Assembly: GCF_055900595.2 (NCBI RefSeq)
Contig: NZ_CM148325.1
DNA: 64,000 nucleotides
Direction: 5' to 3' (one strand)
In this document: positions 5,783 to 19,685 of the stretch, piece by piece
How the letters are laid out: each line of letters begins with the position of its first letter
How positions within the stretch are numbered: position 1 is the first letter of the stretch
Program-made: the position numbers and the translations under genes
Notes under the pieces: model-generated
What the model saw: only the letters and a program-made list of their open reading frames with translations
Told to the model about the DNA's origin: nothing
Database searches by the model: none

Positions 5783-8272
5783 ATGGAGTTCGTCAGAGAC
5801 TGGCAAAAACCGCGCCCCGCTATCGGGCGCGAAGGCTTACCCGTACCTGAAACCGCACTGGATACCATCCTGAAGTGTTACCGCGCAGACGAAGAGCGCG
5901 CACTGCACGCTGAAGAGCAGGGTCATCCGCTTGCGGGCACAACCATCGGTAACGCGATCGACAAGTGGGAAGGCGCACAGGAGCGCCAGGAAGAGGCCAT
6001 CACGCTCACACAGGAAGCGAGAAGACACCCGCCCACCCTTATTGAGGAAACCCTCAAAGAGCTGGACACCCTGCCCAAGTGGTTGAGGCTGCCGCTGATT
6101 AAGCACCTGAACTTTTTAAGGCGCAAACAGGAGGACGAACAACAGAAAGGCAAGCGCGGCAAGGACACCCGCAAATATGAGCGCTTCCTGAAAAACGGCA
6201 TCCCCGCACGTCTTCGCCGTATTCGTGAGATTAACGCTCGCTTTGCACCGTTAAGTTTTCAGGCCGCTGCCATGCGCGAGAGTCTGGAAGAACTGATCAC
6301 ACTGCCGAACCTGAGCCGTGAACGCATCCAGAAAATAGCCGTACTGCTTGCCAGCGCCGTTAAAATGCATCTTGCCGACGCAATGGACAAGGCCCGCGAA
6401 ATAACAGGGAACGACAAAGACGACAACCTGAACAACTGGCTGATTGCCTACCAGTATATTGGTCGCCGTGTCCTGAAGCTGGGGATCACCCCACCATACT
6501 GGAGCGCCCTTGAACTCCGCCCCGACCGCAGAAGCCCCCCGGACGTGACACTGGTTCCGGGCGCTGTTTTGCGCCTGAACGACGCCGAATGGTGGAATAA
6601 AAAACTTCGCCAGATGCACGACGTCTGGCGTGAGGAACTTTTACGTGCAGCGGGCCTTGTATCCCGCCAGACCTCCGTTTATGTGAGCCGTGAAGCGCTG
6701 GCAGACTTCCGCGAAAAACAGGCCCGTACCCGCGATTTTCTCAAAGCGCACGACGTGGAGAACGAAGACGGCGAACGCATCAGTCTGGAAGATATCTACT
6801 ACGCCAGTACATCCAACCCGCATAACCGCCGCAACGAGATGATGGCGTGCGTTAAGGGAATGGAGCTTATCGCACAGGAACGCGGCGACGTGGCCTTCTT
6901 CGTCACGGTCACAGCCCCGTCTCGTTTTCACAGCGTCACCGACGCAGGCACGCTGAACCCGAAATACAAAGGCGCAACCGTAAAGGACGCCAGCGACTAT
7001 CTGGTTTATAACTTCTTCGCCTCCGCCCGCAAACTCATCAAAAAAGAGAAGCGGGGCTGGTACGGCATTCGCACCGTGGAGCCTCACCACGACGGCACGC
7101 CCCACTGGCACATGCTGGTATTCACAAGCCCTGAGAACGAAGAGCGCATCACGGAAATCATGTGCAATGCCGCCATTCGCGAAGACCGGGCAGAGCTGGG
7201 CGACGACATCACCCCGCGCTTCAAGTGCGAGAAGATAGATCCCGAAAAAGGCACGCCAACCAGCTACATCGCCACCTACATAGGCAAAGGCATTGACGCC
7301 GCTGCATTCGGCGACACGGATCCAAAAACAGGTAAACCGCCCGTTGACCACGAAAGCGGAAAACCTATGGCGGACACCGTGGAAAACGCCGTCGCCTGGG
7401 CGCGCCTGCATCGCATTCGCCAGTTCCAGTTCTTTGGCCTCCCTTCCCGTCAGGTGTGGCGTGAGTTCCGCCGCCTTGCCGGACAAATGGCACGCAACCC
7501 GAAGGGGCCGCAGGCACTGACCAACCCCAAAGCCGACGCCCTCCTTGTTGCAGCCGATACGGGGTGTTTTGCCAGCTACATCATGCATCAGGGCGGTGTG
7601 CTCATTCCCCGTAGTGAATATCTGGCCCGCACAGCCTACGTCACCGCAGAAGAGCCGAACAATTACAGCGAATTCCCCGAGCGCATTTACGGTATCCGCA
7701 TGCCGGAACTGGGGGAGGACTTCACGTTATGCACCCACCCGGAAGAGTGGAAAATCGTCAGAAAGGAACCGGAACCAGACAACCGCACGGGCGAGGGTTT
7801 TGACCTTCAGGGCGGCCCCGCCGCCCCTTGGACTCGTGGCAATAACTGTCACCCTGACGAAAAAACAACCAACAACAGCACACAAACAGAACAGTCAGAG
7901 TGGGCAAAACTGCCCCCCTTACCCCCATCGTCGGACGGTTTTGTGAGCTGGTTTAAGTCGCTTAAGAGGCCGGACAGGAAAAAACTACAAAGATTGCTCA
8001 AAAAACGCACCGAAGAGAGTCGCCAGAACGCCAGCGGCGGCACCGACACACCCACCGACACCATTAACCTGGGCGTTGTGCTGCCGGAACTGCCGGAAAT
8101 CGTGCAAGTCCGCCGCGATCTGGAAGCGCTGGGCGCGGACTTCCCCGAAGCAATGGCCCATTCCGTCTTTATGGGTGCCCGCGTTCGTCTGGGTGACGGT
8201 CGCACCGTTCACCGCGACGAGCAGACCGGGCGCATCACCGTCACCAGTCTGCAACCGGAGGCGAAACCATGA
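5783..8272 (+). CDS. A: Replication initiation endonuclease, P2 gpA family
   Basis: 829-aa ORF at the position of P2 gene A (between the early genes and the portal); large rolling-circle-type replication protein. Confidence 0.75.
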   Translation: MEFVRDWQKPRPAIGREGLPVPETALDTILKCYRADEERALHAEEQGHPLAGTTIGNAIDKWEGAQERQEEAITLTQEARRHPPTLIEETLKELDTLPKWLRLPLIKHLNFLRRKQEDEQQKGKRGKDTRKYERFLKNGIPARLRRIREINARFAPLSFQAAAMRESLEELITLPNLSRERIQKIAVLLASAVKMHLADAMDKAREITGNDKDDNLNNWLIAYQYIGRRVLKLGITPPYWSALELRPDRRSPPDVTLVPGAVLRLNDAEWWNKKLRQMHDVWREELLRAAGLVSRQTSVYVSREALADFREKQARTRDFLKAHDVENEDGERISLEDIYYASTSNPHNRRNEMMACVKGMELIAQERGDVAFFVTVTAPSRFHSVTDAGTLNPKYKGATVKDASDYLVYNFFASARKLIKKEKRGWYGIRTVEPHHDGTPHWHMLVFTSPENEERITEIMCNAAIREDRAELGDDITPRFKCEKIDPEKGTPTSYIATYIGKGIDAAAFGDTDPKTGKPPVDHESGKPMADTVENAVAWARLHRIRQFQFFGLPSRQVWREFRRLAGQMARNPKGPQALTNPKADALLVAADTGCFASYIMHQGGVLIPRSEYLARTAYVTAEEPNNYSEFPERIYGIRMPELGEDFTLCTHPEEWKIVRKEPEPDNRTGEGFDLQGGPAAPWTRGNNCHPDEKTTNNSTQTEQSEWAKLPPLPPSSDGFVSWFKSLKRPDRKKLQRLLKKRTEESRQNASGGTDTPTDTINLGVVLPELPEIVQVRRDLEALGADFPEAMAHSVFMGARVRLGDGRTVHRDEQTGRITVTSLQPEAKP

Positions 8273-8937: not shown

Positions 8938-9519
8938 ATGAAAAAAAGAGACCTTAAAAAACACCTCCGTAGTCAGATTGAATATTTTGAAGATAAGGCT
9001 GCAAAAACAGGGCTTTCCGGTAAAGAGAACATGAACTTCAGGGCACACCTCCTGACGTGGAGAATACTTAATATCACGAGAGATGGACTTGAGCCGCTAG
9101 CCTACCTGATGGAAGATGGCGAGACCCTCATACAGGATCCCAATGTGGAAATGGAGAAGAAAGAGATGGACCTGCCGATAATCGGGCTGTTTGAGATCCC
9201 TGAACTAATAGGACGTTATGAACACGAAAACCGCCAGCTTGCCGCCTTTTTATCCGTGACAATCGAACGACTGGAAACCGTGAAACACGATATTCCGTTC
9301 GGTTTTGATGAGCGCACCGAGGGTGATTTGCTCAGCTTTCAGATTGCCCTGAACGTGCTCACCGCAGAGCCTTCTGCGTGGCTACGCCCGGAACGGCACC
9401 ACAACACGTTCGCATTTACCGTAATTCCCTACGATGCCGCACAGGAAGAGGATAACTTCGAGACCAGGCTTGTTCCCCTGTATCAGATTGCGGATTTCTA
9501 TACGTTGATTCGCTGGTAA
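8938..9519 (+). CDS. Uncharacterised cargo protein (193 aa)
   Basis: ORF track; AGGAG Shine-Dalgarno; acidic, no TM, no motif I can assign; followed by an intrinsic terminator. Confidence 0.55.
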   Translation: MKKRDLKKHLRSQIEYFEDKAAKTGLSGKENMNFRAHLLTWRILNITRDGLEPLAYLMEDGETLIQDPNVEMEKKEMDLPIIGLFEIPELIGRYEHENRQLAAFLSVTIERLETVKHDIPFGFDERTEGDLLSFQIALNVLTAEPSAWLRPERHHNTFAFTVIPYDAAQEEDNFETRLVPLYQIADFYTLIRW

Positions 9520-9532
9520 TCCCCCACAGTAA

Positions 9533-9558
9533 AACAGCCCGACCGGGCTGTTTTTTTA
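9533..9558 (+). terminator. Intrinsic terminator
   Basis: ACAGCCCGACCGGGCTG hairpin followed by T7. Confidence 0.6.
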
Positions 9559-9614
9559 TCTGATATTTTTGATAACGTTGACCGGCTCATTAGCAAAAAA
9601 GCAAAGAGGAAAAC

Positions 9615-10001
9615 ATGAAAGCCCGTATCGGGATCATCCCGGAAAAAGCCCTGCGCCAGCACCTGATTGATATTGCCAGAGGGAAGCGAAAACCACAGCC
9701 CGACGAGCCAAAGGTATGGTTTTCATCCATCAATGCGGCAGGCCAGACGCTGAGCAATGAAAATATCGCCCTTCTGCGTCTTATGAATGAGGAGAAGCCG
9801 CAGACCATGACCGCACTTGCGGAGTTATCCGGCAGAAAACTGAGCAACCTGTCTGTAACCCTGAAAATGCTGAGCAGCTACGGTTTTGTCAGTCTGGAAA
9901 AGAAAGGGAATACTGTACACCCGAAAGCACTTTTTACCGATTTTGAAATCATCGTTGATCCGTCCGTGGGTTCAGTACATCGCGCCACCGCCCGGCCCTG
10001 A
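9615..10001 (+). CDS. Small winged-HTH-like DNA-binding protein (128 aa)
   Basis: ORF track; AAGAGGA Shine-Dalgarno; central segment MTALAELSGRKLSNLSVTLKMLSSYGFVSL resembles a wHTH recognition region. Confidence 0.5.
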   Translation: MKARIGIIPEKALRQHLIDIARGKRKPQPDEPKVWFSSINAAGQTLSNENIALLRLMNEEKPQTMTALAELSGRKLSNLSVTLKMLSSYGFVSLEKKGNTVHPKALFTDFEIIVDPSVGSVHRATARP

Positions 10002-10013
10002 AGTGCGCAATAA

Positions 10014-10040
10014 ACAGCCCCGTTCGGGGCTGTTATTTAT
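10014..10040. terminator. Bidirectional intrinsic terminator
   Basis: CAGCCCCGTTCGGGGCTG hairpin flanked by T-rich sequence on both strands, between convergent genes. Confidence 0.55.
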
Positions 10041-10411
10041 TCCAGAATCAGCTGTTCAGGTGTGCAGCCGTACAGTCTGGCAAGGCGCTCAATATTTGCC
10101 CTGCGCGGGCGTTCTGTTCTTTCGAATTCGGACACGGTAGCCTGCCTGATACCCAGCGCATCCGCCACCTGCTTTTGCGTCATTCCGCGATAGATTCGCC
10201 ACGCCGCCTGCATGGTGCAGCCACGTTCCGAGAGGATGTTGACCACCTCGTTGGGATACAGCGTATCAGGCGATGCACTCGGTTCGTTCTGGACGTCCTC
10301 GTAGAGTTCGTCAAGGTCGCTGTCTCCTGCCAGTTTTTCAAACAACGCCACTGGCAGAATGACGGATACCCTGTTACCCGCACCGTCAGTAATAAACTGA
10401 ATCTGACTCAT
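10037..10411 (-). CDS. HigA-like antitoxin, XRE-family HTH (124 aa)
   Basis: C-terminal HTH (MTQKQVADALGIRQATVSEFERTERPRRANIERLARLYGCTPEQL); immediately downstream of a RelE/ParE-like gene. Confidence 0.65.
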   Translation of the reverse strand: MSQIQFITDGAGNRVSVILPVALFEKLAGDSDLDELYEDVQNEPSASPDTLYPNEVVNILSERGCTMQAAWRIYRGMTQKQVADALGIRQATVSEFERTERPRRANIERLARLYGCTPEQLILE

Positions 10412-10459
10412 TTGCCCCTCCTGCTAAACATCGGTTTATTTTTTAATTTGCTGCCGGTG

Positions 10460-10484
10460 ATAAAAAACGGCGGGTCGCCCCGCC
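10460..10484 (-). terminator. Intrinsic terminator-like hairpin between toxin and antitoxin genes
   Basis: On the minus-strand transcript: GGCGGG-GCGA-CCCGCC followed by GUUUUUUAU, starting directly after the toxin stop codon. Confidence 0.45.
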
Positions 10485-10757
10485 TTAGTATGTTGTCGAG
10501 GTTCTCCGCTGAATACGGAGGATCCTGATAACCACTATCTGCCCTCCCTCAATCGTGAACCTGACACGGTAATGATTTACCCTGAGTCTGTACTCCCCGC
10601 CCGAGTCAGTGAGCTTTTTAATATCCAGATTCTGGAACTTCGGATAGCCATAAAGCGCGTTAACTTTCTCGCGTAAGGATTTCTGATCCCTCGCTGGCAA
10701 AACCCGTAAATCTTTGATTGCCCGAGGGGTCCACATGATTTCAGTCGTCATAAACAC
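10485..10757 (-). CDS. RelE/ParE-superfamily toxin, HigB-like position (90 aa; start uncertain)
   Basis: MWTPRAIKDLRVLPARDQKSLREKVNAL...YRLRVNHYRVRFTIEGGQIVVIRILRIQRR fits the RelE/ParE pattern; toxin-first gene order is HigBA-like. Confidence 0.65.
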   Translation of the reverse strand: MFMTTEIMWTPRAIKDLRVLPARDQKSLREKVNALYGYPKFQNLDIKKLTDSGGEYRLRVNHYRVRFTIEGGQIVVIRILRIQRRTSTTY

Positions 10758-10860
10758 ACCGGAAGCAAATTATTAAAGAGCCGTGCCCGCTGGCACACCT
10801 TAAATATAGGTTTTAACCCCTATATTGTCAAACAAAATCCCTATATCATGAAGTAAAAAA
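10758..10860. promoter_or_regulatory. Putative operator/promoter of the HigBA-like module
   Basis: ATATAGG-N8-CCTATAT palindrome plus a second CCCTATAT direct repeat, directly upstream of the toxin gene. Confidence 0.4.
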
Positions 10861-10879
10861 GCACCTCCCGCGACCTCCC

Positions 10880-11130
10880 TTTCCGGTGCACGAAAGTGCA
10901 CAAATTTGCACAATTTTTTTGAACGACTTTTTGCCCTTCCGGCCCGTGTGGCGTCTGGATCCGTCGGGGATCCGTGCGTGCACGAAAAAAGGCCTTTTTC
11001 TGCGCGCAGGTGACGGGGGAACAGCCCGCGTTTCAGGGGGTAAATAGCATTCCCTGAACGATGTTGCAGTGACACAACAGAATGGCTGTATTTCTCACGC
11101 TGAGCGTGAAAAAGACGTAAGGGCTTTTGA
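10880..11130. other. Palindrome-dense non-coding stretch (candidate structured RNA or protein-binding array)
   Basis: Consecutive perfect palindromes/hairpins: GTGCAC-GAAA-GTGCAC (10886-10901), GGATCC-GTCGG-GGATCC (10957-10973), CGTGCACG, AAAAAGGCCTTTTT (10986-10999), CTGCGCGCAG (10999-11008), CACGC-TGA-GCGTG (about 11096-11108). Confidence 0.4.
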
Positions 11131-11340
11131 TTTGATGGGGTGAAAGATAAGGCCGTCAAAATCGCACTGAGGCAGCGAGAATATGTCGTCAGAGTTGCGG
11201 GGTTGCGTAAGCATCCGCCCGGCGATGATGGCTACAGGGCTGGAGATGTTGTGAAATTATCTGAAGGAATAACCAGCTTGCAGGAGAACCCGGGCAAAGT
11301 CAGAATAGCGGCAGGCATCAACTCAAAAGAGGATAATGTC

Positions 11341-11844
11341 ATGAGCCACTTTAATGATTTATGCCAGATCAATCGTGAAGCTGAAGAAAAACGCGCTGAG
11401 GCAGCTCAAATTTTGCGGGATGAAGCGGCAAGGCTGATTGATTTCTATGAAGAATGGCTGGGGCTTCCATCCATGTACTGGGAAGACGATGATGGCGACC
11501 TGCACCGCTACGTGGAGACAGGCTTGCCATGTAAGACAGCGGCGGATTTTAGTCCTCTTTCAGTCCACAATATCGCATCTGCACCAGACAATATTTTCCG
11601 CATGGCCGTACGAACCTGGGTTAAGTCATCTGACAGCAGCTACCCGGTAAGCGTGGTTATTGCACTTGAATTATATTCAGTAGATGCGGAACGGGTGTCT
11701 CTGAGAGTCCGGGTGGAAGACGATATTTCTGTTCGCGTATTTATCAATAAACCCAGCGAAGAAGCCTGGGGCGATGTTGTTATGCACATGAAAAAGCACA
11801 TCGCTAATCACCTGAAAAAGCGAGCGCCATCAGCACTTCGTTAA
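11341..11844 (+). CDS. Uncharacterised cargo protein (167 aa from ATG 11341; ORF track gives a 234-aa version from GTG 11140)
   Basis: Strong AAGAGGA Shine-Dalgarno before ATG 11341; sits in the position P2 uses for old, next to the portal gene; followed by the palindrome GGGGCATAAATTTTTTATGCCCC. Confidence 0.5.
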   Translation: MSHFNDLCQINREAEEKRAEAAQILRDEAARLIDFYEEWLGLPSMYWEDDDGDLHRYVETGLPCKTAADFSPLSVHNIASAPDNIFRMAVRTWVKSSDSSYPVSVVIALELYSVDAERVSLRVRVEDDISVRVFINKPSEEAWGDVVMHMKKHIANHLKKRAPSALR

Positions 11845-11910
11845 GCAGAGCTGGAGAGTCGGGGCATAAATTTTTTATGCCCCGGCGAAGCAGCAGACAA
11901 GCGAAGCGCG

Positions 11911-19281: not shown

Positions 19282-19685
19282 GACCGGTTTACGCCGTGAT
19301 TGTTGCCCTCATGGTGACCGCCCTGACGGCAGTGGCCATGTGGCAGTCATACCGGCTGGGGCGTGCCGGTGAGGCACGTGACGCCGCAGAGCAGCAGCTG
19401 GGCGAATACAGCCGTGCGCTGCGTGAATCCTCCGCCGTTATCAGCGATGCCTCCGCCGTACTGCATGAGGTGATGACGCAGCGACAGCAAAGGGCACAGG
19501 AAGGAGAAGCCAGACGTGAACAGCTTCGCGAAATTACTGCGACGGATGAGTGCGCCCGCGCTCTTCCTGACCACCGTTTTACTGACCGGCTGCGCGAACA
19601 CACGGAACGCGCCACTGCCCGCGCCCTCCTTCCGGTTCATTCCGGCGGGACTGACGACGGGAACACGGCCCCCGCCCTTCCCTGA
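19278..19685 (+). CDS. i-spanin (Rz / LysB-like)
   Basis: ATG overlapping the endolysin stop; N-terminal TM plus a coiled-coil-like periplasmic region. Confidence 0.65.
   Translation: MRPVYAVIVALMVTALTAVAMWQSYRLGRAGEARDAAEQQLGEYSRALRESSAVISDASAVLHEVMTQRQQRAQEGEARREQLREITATDECARALPDHRFTDRLREHTERATARALLPVHSGGTDDGNTAPALP

Follow-up and report, generated by a model that had tools for sequence, protein, structure and literature searches.

A conserved stop-adjacent hairpin and an rrn-type BoxA in a toxin-first RelE/XRE module: a candidate intercistronic attenuator

Introduction

The minus strand of a 64-kb window (64,000 nucleotides (nt) of contig NZ_CM148325.1, RefSeq assembly GCF_055900595.2, the whole stretch of DNA analysed here) carries a toxin–antitoxin (TA) module in which the gene for a RelE-family toxin precedes that for an antitoxin with an XRE/Cro-type helix-turn-helix (HTH) domain. 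A GC-rich hairpin is located between the two genes, at the toxin stop codon. This intercistronic element is more than a product of chance, because the match to its covariance model is unique in the window and is restricted to toxin 3′ ends in relatives. With a little more confidence than doubt, it is regarded here as a conserved attenuator or 3′-end element that fixes the ratio of toxin to antitoxin transcripts, probably in connection with the Nus factors through a BoxA in the toxin leader. Sequence anatomy, family conservation, the RelE fold, the BoxA consensus match and the co-occurrence of BoxA with the hairpin were computed directly. The finding is anticipated only partly in the literature, with BoxA reported in 2017 (PMC5725501) and, in 2025, an internal terminator for HicAB (PMC11878559).

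Anatomy of the hairpin

In the terminator scan, the hairpin displayed six GC pairs out of six, a 4-nt GNRA loop and the tail GTTTTTTATC. The stem is followed by GUUUUUUAU (10468–10460), with six T in the first 8 nt, the joint highest count in the family. It can be observed that a GC-rich stem of at least 5 bp, a loop of 3–8 nt and a U-rich tract directly 3′, the sequence features that characterize an intrinsic terminator, are all present. The isolated hairpin folds at −12.6 kcal/mol, and the 121-nt region around it has z = −2.2. Within 2.5 kb the scan returned 10 terminator-like sites, compared with 3.1 ± 1.4 in shuffled sequences. The covariance model of the hairpin gave one strong match in the window (28.9 bits, E = 3e-5); the next best, at 19639–19681 on the minus strand, was weak (17.8 bits, E about 0.04). 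The original prediction had described a terminator-shaped element between the genes, and every feature of it was recovered in place.

Conservation of the hairpin among relatives

The comparison set comprised 30 non-redundant loci (designated L), whose toxins are 36–70% identical to that of the window, and the hairpin was counted as present when a stem-loop of −11 kcal/mol or stronger was found. It occurs in 22 of the 30 loci, lying 0–7 nt past the toxin stop codon in 21 of these (most commonly 5–6 nt) and 18 nt past it in one. The usual stem is GGCGGG(G)/(C)CCCGCC, with loops (GAAA, GUAA, GCAA, GCGA, GAGA) that are mostly of the GNRA type, while the sequence from stop codon to stem and the remaining spacer are unconserved among relatives. 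Since alignment by MAFFT placed the 3′ arms of the hairpin out of register, manual comparison and the covariance model were used instead. Most stems are identical; paired double changes, judged by manual comparison to be compensatory, appear in divergent members (AGUGGGGA/UCCCCACU, GGUGGGG/CCCCACC, UGAGGGGGA/UCCCCCUCA, CUGGCGG/CCGCCAG), with compensatory changes at stem positions 1 and 3 (G:C to A:U or U:A; C:G to U:A or A:U). Across 211 kb of related loci, the covariance model matched toxin 3′ ends only, on the sense strand, where scores of 29–37 bits were obtained compared with 13–19 bits for antisense, 10–20 bits apart.

The tract past the stem was then compared over the 22 loci that bear the hairpin. 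Five or more T within 8 nt were found in only three of them (the window, L091 and L099), most relatives having 0–4, with typical tails of CAACCCAG, GCCCTTCT and CCGTCAAC. The window therefore comes closest to a terminator within the family, and is not a typical member. Terminators located after the antitoxin gene in the same loci (GCCCCG...CGGGGC) carry clear T-runs. The canonical terminator shape originally proposed is hence correct for the window and fails as a family trait, in that the hairpin is conserved and the U-run is not.

Spacers between the genes range from 35 to 186 nt, and the toxin and antitoxin genes never overlap in the clade of the window. In a more distant enterobacterial clade, L087 (1218–1899) displays classical gene overlap, a difference from the separated clade that mirrors the O and T subfamilies of HicAB. 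The family extends to Shewanella, with a 306-nt gap between toxin and HTH genes in L088 (Shewanella baltica plasmid, 928–1914). In relatives of the Morganella/Proteus type (L002–L008, L011, L095), the spacer of 170–186 nt contains an open reading frame (ORF) of 16–19 codons with a strong Shine-Dalgarno sequence, AGGAG (for example in L007, ~2895–2950), and an A5/T6 hairpin behind it. The ORFs include MPKIISSGLRSRRRIS, MSKTVSSRSLNRRRIR and MITNANSPFASRQISNSFR; that the ORF is kept while the peptide diverges suggests a regulatory upstream ORF, to which the window has no counterpart. A relationship between the P2 cos end and the hairpin, which reads GGCGAGGCGGGGAAA in L077, was considered and dropped, because the cos sequence is not matched in the window even with 3 mismatches allowed and the motif is also found on plasmids.

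BoxA and its co-occurrence with the hairpin

Upstream of the toxin, the window contains GCTCTTTAATA, a perfect fit to the BoxA consensus GYTCTTTAANA and the sole match to it in the window on either strand. Among the 30 loci, the match is perfect in 16 and has at most one mismatch in 20. The relatives share (T/C)G(C/T)TCTTTAACAATTT between the leader stem-loop and the toxin start, which is the BoxA of rrn operons; the rrn BoxA sequence has been given as ugcucuuuaacaauuua and the rrn “cac-boxA-spacer” oligonucleotide as CACugcucuuuaacaauuua (PMC2724277). In 2017, Baniulyte et al. screened gamma-proteobacteria for GYTCTTTAANA no more than 50 nt away from a start codon and obtained ParE-like toxins in two genera (PMC5725501). 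In that study, the C4A mutation of boxA or the deletion of nusB raised a transcriptional fusion of the Citrobacter koseri toxin CKO_00699 to lacZ in E. coli (PMC5725501). By analogy, NusB/NusE-dependent regulation is predicted for the present locus.

With up to one mismatch allowed, the hairpin is present in 18 and absent in 0 of the lineages that possess BoxA, and it is present in 3 and absent in 7 of those that lack it (Fisher p = 1e-4, uncorrected for shared ancestry). The lineages without both elements belong to a close clade (L096, L097) as well as to distant ones (Rahnella, Pantoea, Ewingella and the reversed locus L010), and more than one loss must therefore have occurred. Since gain and loss of the two elements coincide, BoxA and the hairpin probably act as one regulatory unit. 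The sole experiment on the family indicates repression upstream of the hairpin.

Promoter, operator and leader

The promoter TTGACA-17-TATATT (10831–10803) matches the sigma-70 consensus at 11 of 12 positions. Within the 64 kb, ATATAGGG occurs exactly at two places only, 10846–10839 and 10825–10818 on the minus strand. These boxes together make up a direct repeat of 21 nt, and the −35/−10 spacer is spanned by a perfect inverted repeat of 8 nt, AATATAGG/CCTATATT (10826–10819/10810–10803). This promoter/operator architecture recurs upstream of the toxin in most relatives. The upstream repeats reported earlier as CCCTATAT are real, being ATATAGGG on the coding strand, and the suggestion that they constitute the operator agrees well with their conservation in relatives. 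In L010, where the gene order is reversed, the ATATAGGG operator/promoter lies directly before the HTH gene, followed by a true terminator, a TATAAT box and the toxin. The operator is therefore tied to the HTH protein, and both genes can evidently be expressed as separate units. In L010 (2050–3250), a locus of the Xenorhabdus type, the upstream gene's 3′ end is also duplicated in direct orientation on either side of the cassette (...CCTGAAAGA(A/T)GCGATGAT(C/T)CAGGC...TATTTT(G/A)...TAA), as if the cassette had been inserted as a unit.

The leader stem-loop of the window probably lies at or beside the predicted mRNA 5′ end, the transcription start being placed from the position of the −10 box. 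A hairpin between the −10 box and BoxA is also found in relatives with other stems (TCCC/GGGA, UUCCGA/UCGGGA, AUCGC/GCGAU). Neither the leader stem-loop nor the rrn-type BoxA (together 10797–10771, minus strand) figured in the original prediction.

Toxin and antitoxin proteins

The 88-residue product of the first gene matches Pfam ParE_toxin at 4e-9 and a RelE-like toxin in PHROG at 1e-14. A profile of 28 family members, compared with the PDB, matched M. jannaschii RelE3 (1.8e-8), P. horikoshii aRelE and E. coli RelE (1.5e-5). In the profile alignment, the C-terminal R-R-x4-Y of the family is placed onto the C-terminal R-E-R-x3-Y87 of E. coli RelE. R83 and Y88 are invariant and R82 is nearly invariant in the family, and they fall on the C-terminal stretch of E. 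coli RelE that forms its catalytic region (R81, Y87); R82A was the inactivating mutation chosen for CKO_00699 (PMC5725501). The AlphaFold2 model of the toxin (predicted local distance difference test (pLDDT) 87, predicted template-modelling score (pTM) 0.72) has the fold of the RelE/ParE superfamily, two N-terminal helices and an antiparallel sheet. Its top Foldseek matches in the PDB are all RelE proteins (RelE3 3bpq, aRelE 1wmi, T. thermophilus RelE and M. tuberculosis RelE; template-modelling scores 0.70–0.77), with ParE, YoeB, YafQ and HigB ranked below. Structures of HigB are ranked 38th or lower, at E ~1e-2 (8e-3 or weaker) compared with 5e-6 for RelE. The threshold of NCBIfam TIGR02385 (RelE_StbE) is missed, at 22.7 bits against a cut-off of 27.9, and the toxin therefore belongs to a divergent RelE clade outside that curated subfamily. 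Regarding the earlier description of the pair as HigBA-like, the toxin-first order and the HTH antitoxin bear it out, whereas the toxin type is RelE by both profile and predicted fold.

The 124-residue antitoxin matches Pfam HTH_3 at 9e-11 and PHROG 7241 at 1e-29. Its N-terminal extension of ~60 residues is conserved and contains a faint RelB-like match at residues 5–28. A toxin–linker–antitoxin fusion, modelled by AlphaFold2 with a paired alignment, reached a pTM of 0.70 despite its disordered 25-residue linker, with N-terminal strands and a helix of the antitoxin at pLDDT 72–80. Binding of the toxin by the N-terminal segment is suggested by this model and not proven. Sequence comparison with HigA structures gave no match to the antitoxin, and a Foldseek search with the fused model returned RelE and generic Cro/C1 domains only, so no solved antitoxin of the same architecture was found. 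Of the 33 full-length family loci examined, 30 have the two genes side by side; L080 and L098 have no adjoining toxin gene, and in L088 the query missed the neighbouring toxin. The loci are hosted by P2-like prophages, plasmids, chromosomal islands and a Pasteurella phage. The original assignment of the genes to type II, with the toxin first and an HTH antitoxin second, is upheld.

Comparison with known systems

The module is best read as a complete type II system of the BoxA-regulated RelE/long-XRE-antitoxin family. CKO_00699, one of the closest known systems, shares with the window this protein family, the promoter/operator, the leader and the downstream HTH gene. The C. koseri-type locus L092, with a toxin 59% identical to that of the window, has BoxA GCTCTTTAACA 23 nt before the start codon and possesses R82, three points that agree with the CKO_00699 entry of Baniulyte et al. 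(PMC5725501). In the window, the BoxA variant ends in ...AATA and lies at 19 nt, and a U-run follows the hairpin, in contrast to none in the C. koseri type (CGTTTCCC). BoxA and the NusB-dependent repression of the toxin are covered in that paper, which does not mention an intergenic hairpin or terminator (PMC5725501).

A functional precedent comes from hicA(T)B of IncI2 plasmids, a toxin-first system in which Lin et al. (2025) identified an intergenic GC hairpin with UUU only as a noncanonical intrinsic terminator (PMC11878559). There, the hairpin results in ~10-fold more hicA than hicB mRNA and lower HicB translation, and it is required for plasmid competition; the sister subfamily with overlapping genes has no hairpin (PMC11878559). 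The module studied here resembles HicA(T)B in its toxin-first order, in a GC hairpin just upstream of the antitoxin ribosome-binding site, in the conservation of that hairpin within a subfamily, and in a canonical terminator that closes the operon. A hairpin-dependent excess of toxin over antitoxin mRNA may, by this analogy, be expected here as well. The differences should also be noted: the proteins are unrelated (HicA/HicB compared with RelE/XRE), the gap is 24 bp compared with 73 bp in the window, HicAB has a second promoter and no BoxA, and the U6 of the window is more canonical than the UUU of HicAB. A terminator between toxin and antitoxin had been called unusual, which is fair, although a precedent exists; in light of the HicA(T)B results, the feature has a demonstrated function in another family (PMC11878559).

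The remaining comparisons concern single components. HigBA and HigB2-HigA2 share the toxin-first order and the XRE-type HTH antitoxin, whereas the toxin of the window matches RelE and not HigB. HigA2 of V. cholerae has an N-terminal toxin-binding segment and a C-terminal HTH. With RelBE, the module shares the RelE fold, the C-terminal basic and tyrosine residues and the weak RelB-like signal at the antitoxin N-terminus. In RelBE, however, the antitoxin gene comes first, encodes a ribbon-helix-helix protein and overlaps or adjoins the toxin gene, whereas in the window the order is reversed, the antitoxin is of the HTH type and the genes are apart. The leader is similar to rrn leaders and lambda nut sites in that a stem-loop is followed by a UGCUCUUUAACAAUUU-like BoxA, the rrn order of boxB then boxA. 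It is also similar to suhB, where a BoxA near the start codon can repress translation, and BoxA is further known to precede CRISPR arrays. What sets it apart from rrn and nut is the toxin gene that follows BoxA and the intercistronic hairpin that accompanies BoxA downstream; no boxC is conserved.

Proposed mechanism and alternatives

The mechanism envisaged begins with a single strong sigma-70 promoter, from which the mRNA would start under repression by the HTH antitoxin through the ATATAGGG operators. The leader would comprise the 5′ stem-loop, then the rrn-type BoxA, then a poorly initiated toxin ORF. BoxA would recruit a Nus factor complex that represses toxin expression, as shown for the C. 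koseri family member. Past the toxin stop codon, the GNRA-capped, all-GC stem-loop and U6 would cause a fraction of RNA polymerases to terminate, giving a short toxin-only transcript located between two protective stem-loops. The remaining polymerases would cross 48 untranslated bases into the antitoxin gene and its strong ribosome-binding site. The antitoxin, made from read-through, would compensate through that much stronger site (AGGAGG compared with GGTG) and through the Nus/BoxA repression of the toxin. Four parts of this scheme are inferred: where transcription starts, that it actually terminates, that the antitoxin depends on read-through, and that BoxA and the hairpin are functionally linked.

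Several points weigh against this account. The stem is only 6 bp in length, and termination at the hairpin is a prediction. The U-run is missing in 19 of the 22 hairpin-bearing loci and could be a lineage-specific addition in the window. Since most relatives have no U-run, the hairpin may have a conserved function other than intrinsic termination, such as 3′-end protection, a Rho-associated end or translational insulation. The shared ancestry left in the co-occurrence statistic belongs here too. In the CKO_00699 experiment, BoxA/NusB reduced the expression of a transcriptional fusion that lay behind the toxin gene (PMC5725501), a result that fits translational repression followed by Rho termination without showing an effect on the hairpin. 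A weak or non-sigma-70 promoter of the antitoxin could escape consensus scans. Finally, the toxicity of the 88-residue protein and its neutralization by the 124-residue protein are themselves predicted, from adjacency and the fused-pair model.

The first alternative is that the hairpin serves mainly in RNA stability or processing, an explanation we consider unlikely. The polymerase would read through, or be stopped downstream by Rho, and exonucleases would trim the transcript back to the GNRA-capped stem, so that the toxin segment outlives the antitoxin segment; the U-run of the window would add some termination. Trimming of Rho-dependent 3′ ends back to stem-loops without a U-run is common, as would suit the 19 loci without a U-run, in which true terminators do have one. 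The toxin cistron is moreover bracketed by 5′ and 3′ stem-loops, and a mild excess of C over G (133:81) is observed in the 25 nt past the hairpin, as at Rho-dependent ends. This Rut-like C-richness is, however, a weak and short-range bias, and the U6 of the window satisfies the canonical terminator rule. In HicA(T)B, moreover, a hairpin with UUU only did terminate (PMC11878559).

A Nus-dependent switch is quite unlikely. In such a switch, the Nus-loaded polymerase would pass the hairpin and spacer while toxin translation is held down, and the unloaded polymerase would stop and the toxin would be translated, so that the balance of toxin and antitoxin reports the availability of Nus factors. The joint gain and loss of BoxA and hairpin is in keeping with it, as are the rrn order of the leader (stem-loop, then BoxA) and the long, untranslated intergenic gap. 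N-independent Nus complexes, on the other hand, suppress Rho-dependent far better than intrinsic termination. BoxA/NusB control of the toxin has been shown in C. koseri, but there BoxA cut rather than raised the transcription that reached the reporter after the toxin gene (PMC5725501).

The third possibility, considered improbable, is an efficient terminator combined with an unrecognized promoter of the antitoxin's own within the toxin ORF or spacer, uncoupling the genes in the manner of mqsRA or rnlAB. Internal promoters for the antitoxin are frequent in toxin-first systems, and the reversed genes of L010 have separate signals, a terminator after the HTH gene and TATAAT before the toxin. P2 of toxin-first HicAB is such a second promoter (PMC11878559). 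A separate antitoxin promoter had been offered in the original prediction, and it found no backing: the consensus scan of the toxin ORF and spacer in the window gave no match of 8/12 or better, the best being 7/12. Matches of 9/12–10/12 occur in 5 of 24 toxin-first relatives (L005, L077, L079, L085, L086) at unconserved positions, with none recurrent, and the operator is found only at the upstream promoter. Least likely is that the hairpin is an incidental or DNA-level palindrome (a cassette boundary or protein-binding site) with no RNA role, a most improbable reading in spite of its place at a gene boundary within a recombination-prone hotspot, given that it keeps its distance from the stop codon between diverging flanks, that the GNRA loops are strand-specific and the substitutions compensatory, and that it is absent from the operator motif set.

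Module layout and genomic setting

Coordinates of the module are collected in Table 1. The gap between toxin and antitoxin genes is 73 bp. For the toxin start, the ORF list also gives GTG 10757, and RefSeq uses the ATG form in identical E. coli loci; the toxin has a weak Shine-Dalgarno sequence (GGTG), compared with AGGAGG before the antitoxin. A 7-codon ORF, MFSRRGK (10408–10431, minus; ATG TTT AGC AGG AGG GGC AAA TGA), has a stop that overlaps the antitoxin ATG (ATGA), and it probably arose by chance because it is unconserved and has no Shine-Dalgarno sequence.

Table 1. Features of the toxin–antitoxin module in the window
Feature	Position	Strand	Remarks
Autoregulated promoter and operator (predicted)	10856–10803	minus	−35 TTGACA 10831–10826; −10 TATATT 10808–10803
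Leader stem-loop TGTGCC-AGCG-GGCACG	10797–10782	minus	Terminator/hairpin scan; BoxB-like place just upstream of BoxA
rrn-type BoxA GCTCTTTAATA	10781–10771	minus	19 nt upstream of toxin ATG
RelE-family toxin gene	10751–10485	minus	88 residues plus stop; ATG 10751, TAA 10487–10485
Intercistronic stem-loop GGCGGG-GCGA-CCCGCC	10484–10469	minus	First base directly after toxin stop codon
U-run G-UUUUUU-A-U	10468–10460	minus	Gives the hairpin the form of a canonical intrinsic terminator here
Untranslated spacer, 48 nt	10459–10412	minus	Ends in strong Shine-Dalgarno AGGAGG (10422–10417) for the antitoxin
Antitoxin/repressor gene	10411–10037	minus	124 residues; C-terminal XRE/Cro-type HTH, residues 72–121
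Bidirectional terminator AACAGCCCCGAACGGGGCTGTT with T-rich tails	10034–10013	both	Terminator scan; ends the module and the convergent gene 9615–10001

The module is flanked by a P2-type replication endonuclease gene (5783–8272) and by portal and terminase genes (11911 onward), and homology to P88-like phages picks up again at 10887. From this arrangement, the module is taken to be accessory cargo of a P2/P88-like prophage, located in its cos-adjacent variable hotspot. In P2-like phages, this hotspot is a reservoir of anti-phage systems (PMC9122126). Copies at least 99% identical were found in only 9 of 5,426 complete E. coli genomes. The spacer of the E. coli LH50-c lysogen is identical to that of the window. 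A DNA search of a phage collection with the module gave no match, the relatives being reached by protein-mode search. An Rfam scan of 9500–11900 likewise gave no match; PADLOC had no match for the toxin and a generic HTH match only for the antitoxin. A scan of genome contigs was flooded by generic XRE domains and yielded 3 true relatives only.

Other features were observed in the vicinity. A winged-helix gene of 128 residues on the plus strand within 8938–10001, convergent with the module, belongs to the HVO_A0114 family and has weak CasR/CARF-associated and ArsR-like matches. Its upstream partner is an unannotated 193-residue ORF with no family match in the window, compared with a DUF6516 gene in E. 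coli LH50-c (L001, 6900–7657). It seems that the hotspot houses another cassette of two genes, in which one partner has been exchanged. Repeats are located at 10877–10992, where the P88-like homology resumes: GTGCAC(G/A)AA (10886, 10896, 10978), a direct repeat of GGATCCGT (10957, 10968) and imperfect inverted repeats, a cluster that may mark the edge of the hotspot or belong to the cos/packaging region. Between the module and the portal gene, residues 67–233 of the ORF at 11140–11844 (plus strand) match PHROG 5091, of unknown function. RefSeq has a shorter hypothetical protein of 197 residues in the identical E. coli locus, and the true start is for this reason probably internal.

Implications

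Owing to its place in a cos-adjacent defence hotspot, the module is a candidate anti-phage abortive-infection system, and one with an unusual trigger. A quite unlikely extension is that BoxA and the stop-adjacent hairpin form a sensor of the host transcription–translation machinery, by which the prophage guards the Nus machinery. If so, with Nus factors available and translation coupled, toxin translation would stay low and the polymerase would enter the antitoxin gene. The trigger would be the sequestration or shut-off of Nus factors, which host takeover or a lambdoid phage's N protein could bring about, or the loss of ribosomes trailing the polymerase to the toxin stop codon. The polymerase would then halt at the hairpin, toxin-only mRNA would build up, and the RelE toxin would abort the infection. 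Baniulyte et al. (2017) ask in their discussion what makes Nus complexes promote or prevent termination according to context (PMC5725501); the link to Nus factors would make this question directly testable on a 0.9-kb cassette.

The regulation of type II TA systems is usually explained at the protein level, by conditional cooperativity and antitoxin proteolysis. The layout described here is different, in that three RNA-level elements surround the toxin cistron (the 5′ stem-loop, BoxA and the stop-adjacent GNRA hairpin), the last two of which are co-inherited. The family would thereby be a second one, independent of HicA(T)B, whose transcript ratio is set by a terminator-like element inside the operon, and this suggests a general strategy of toxin-first systems.

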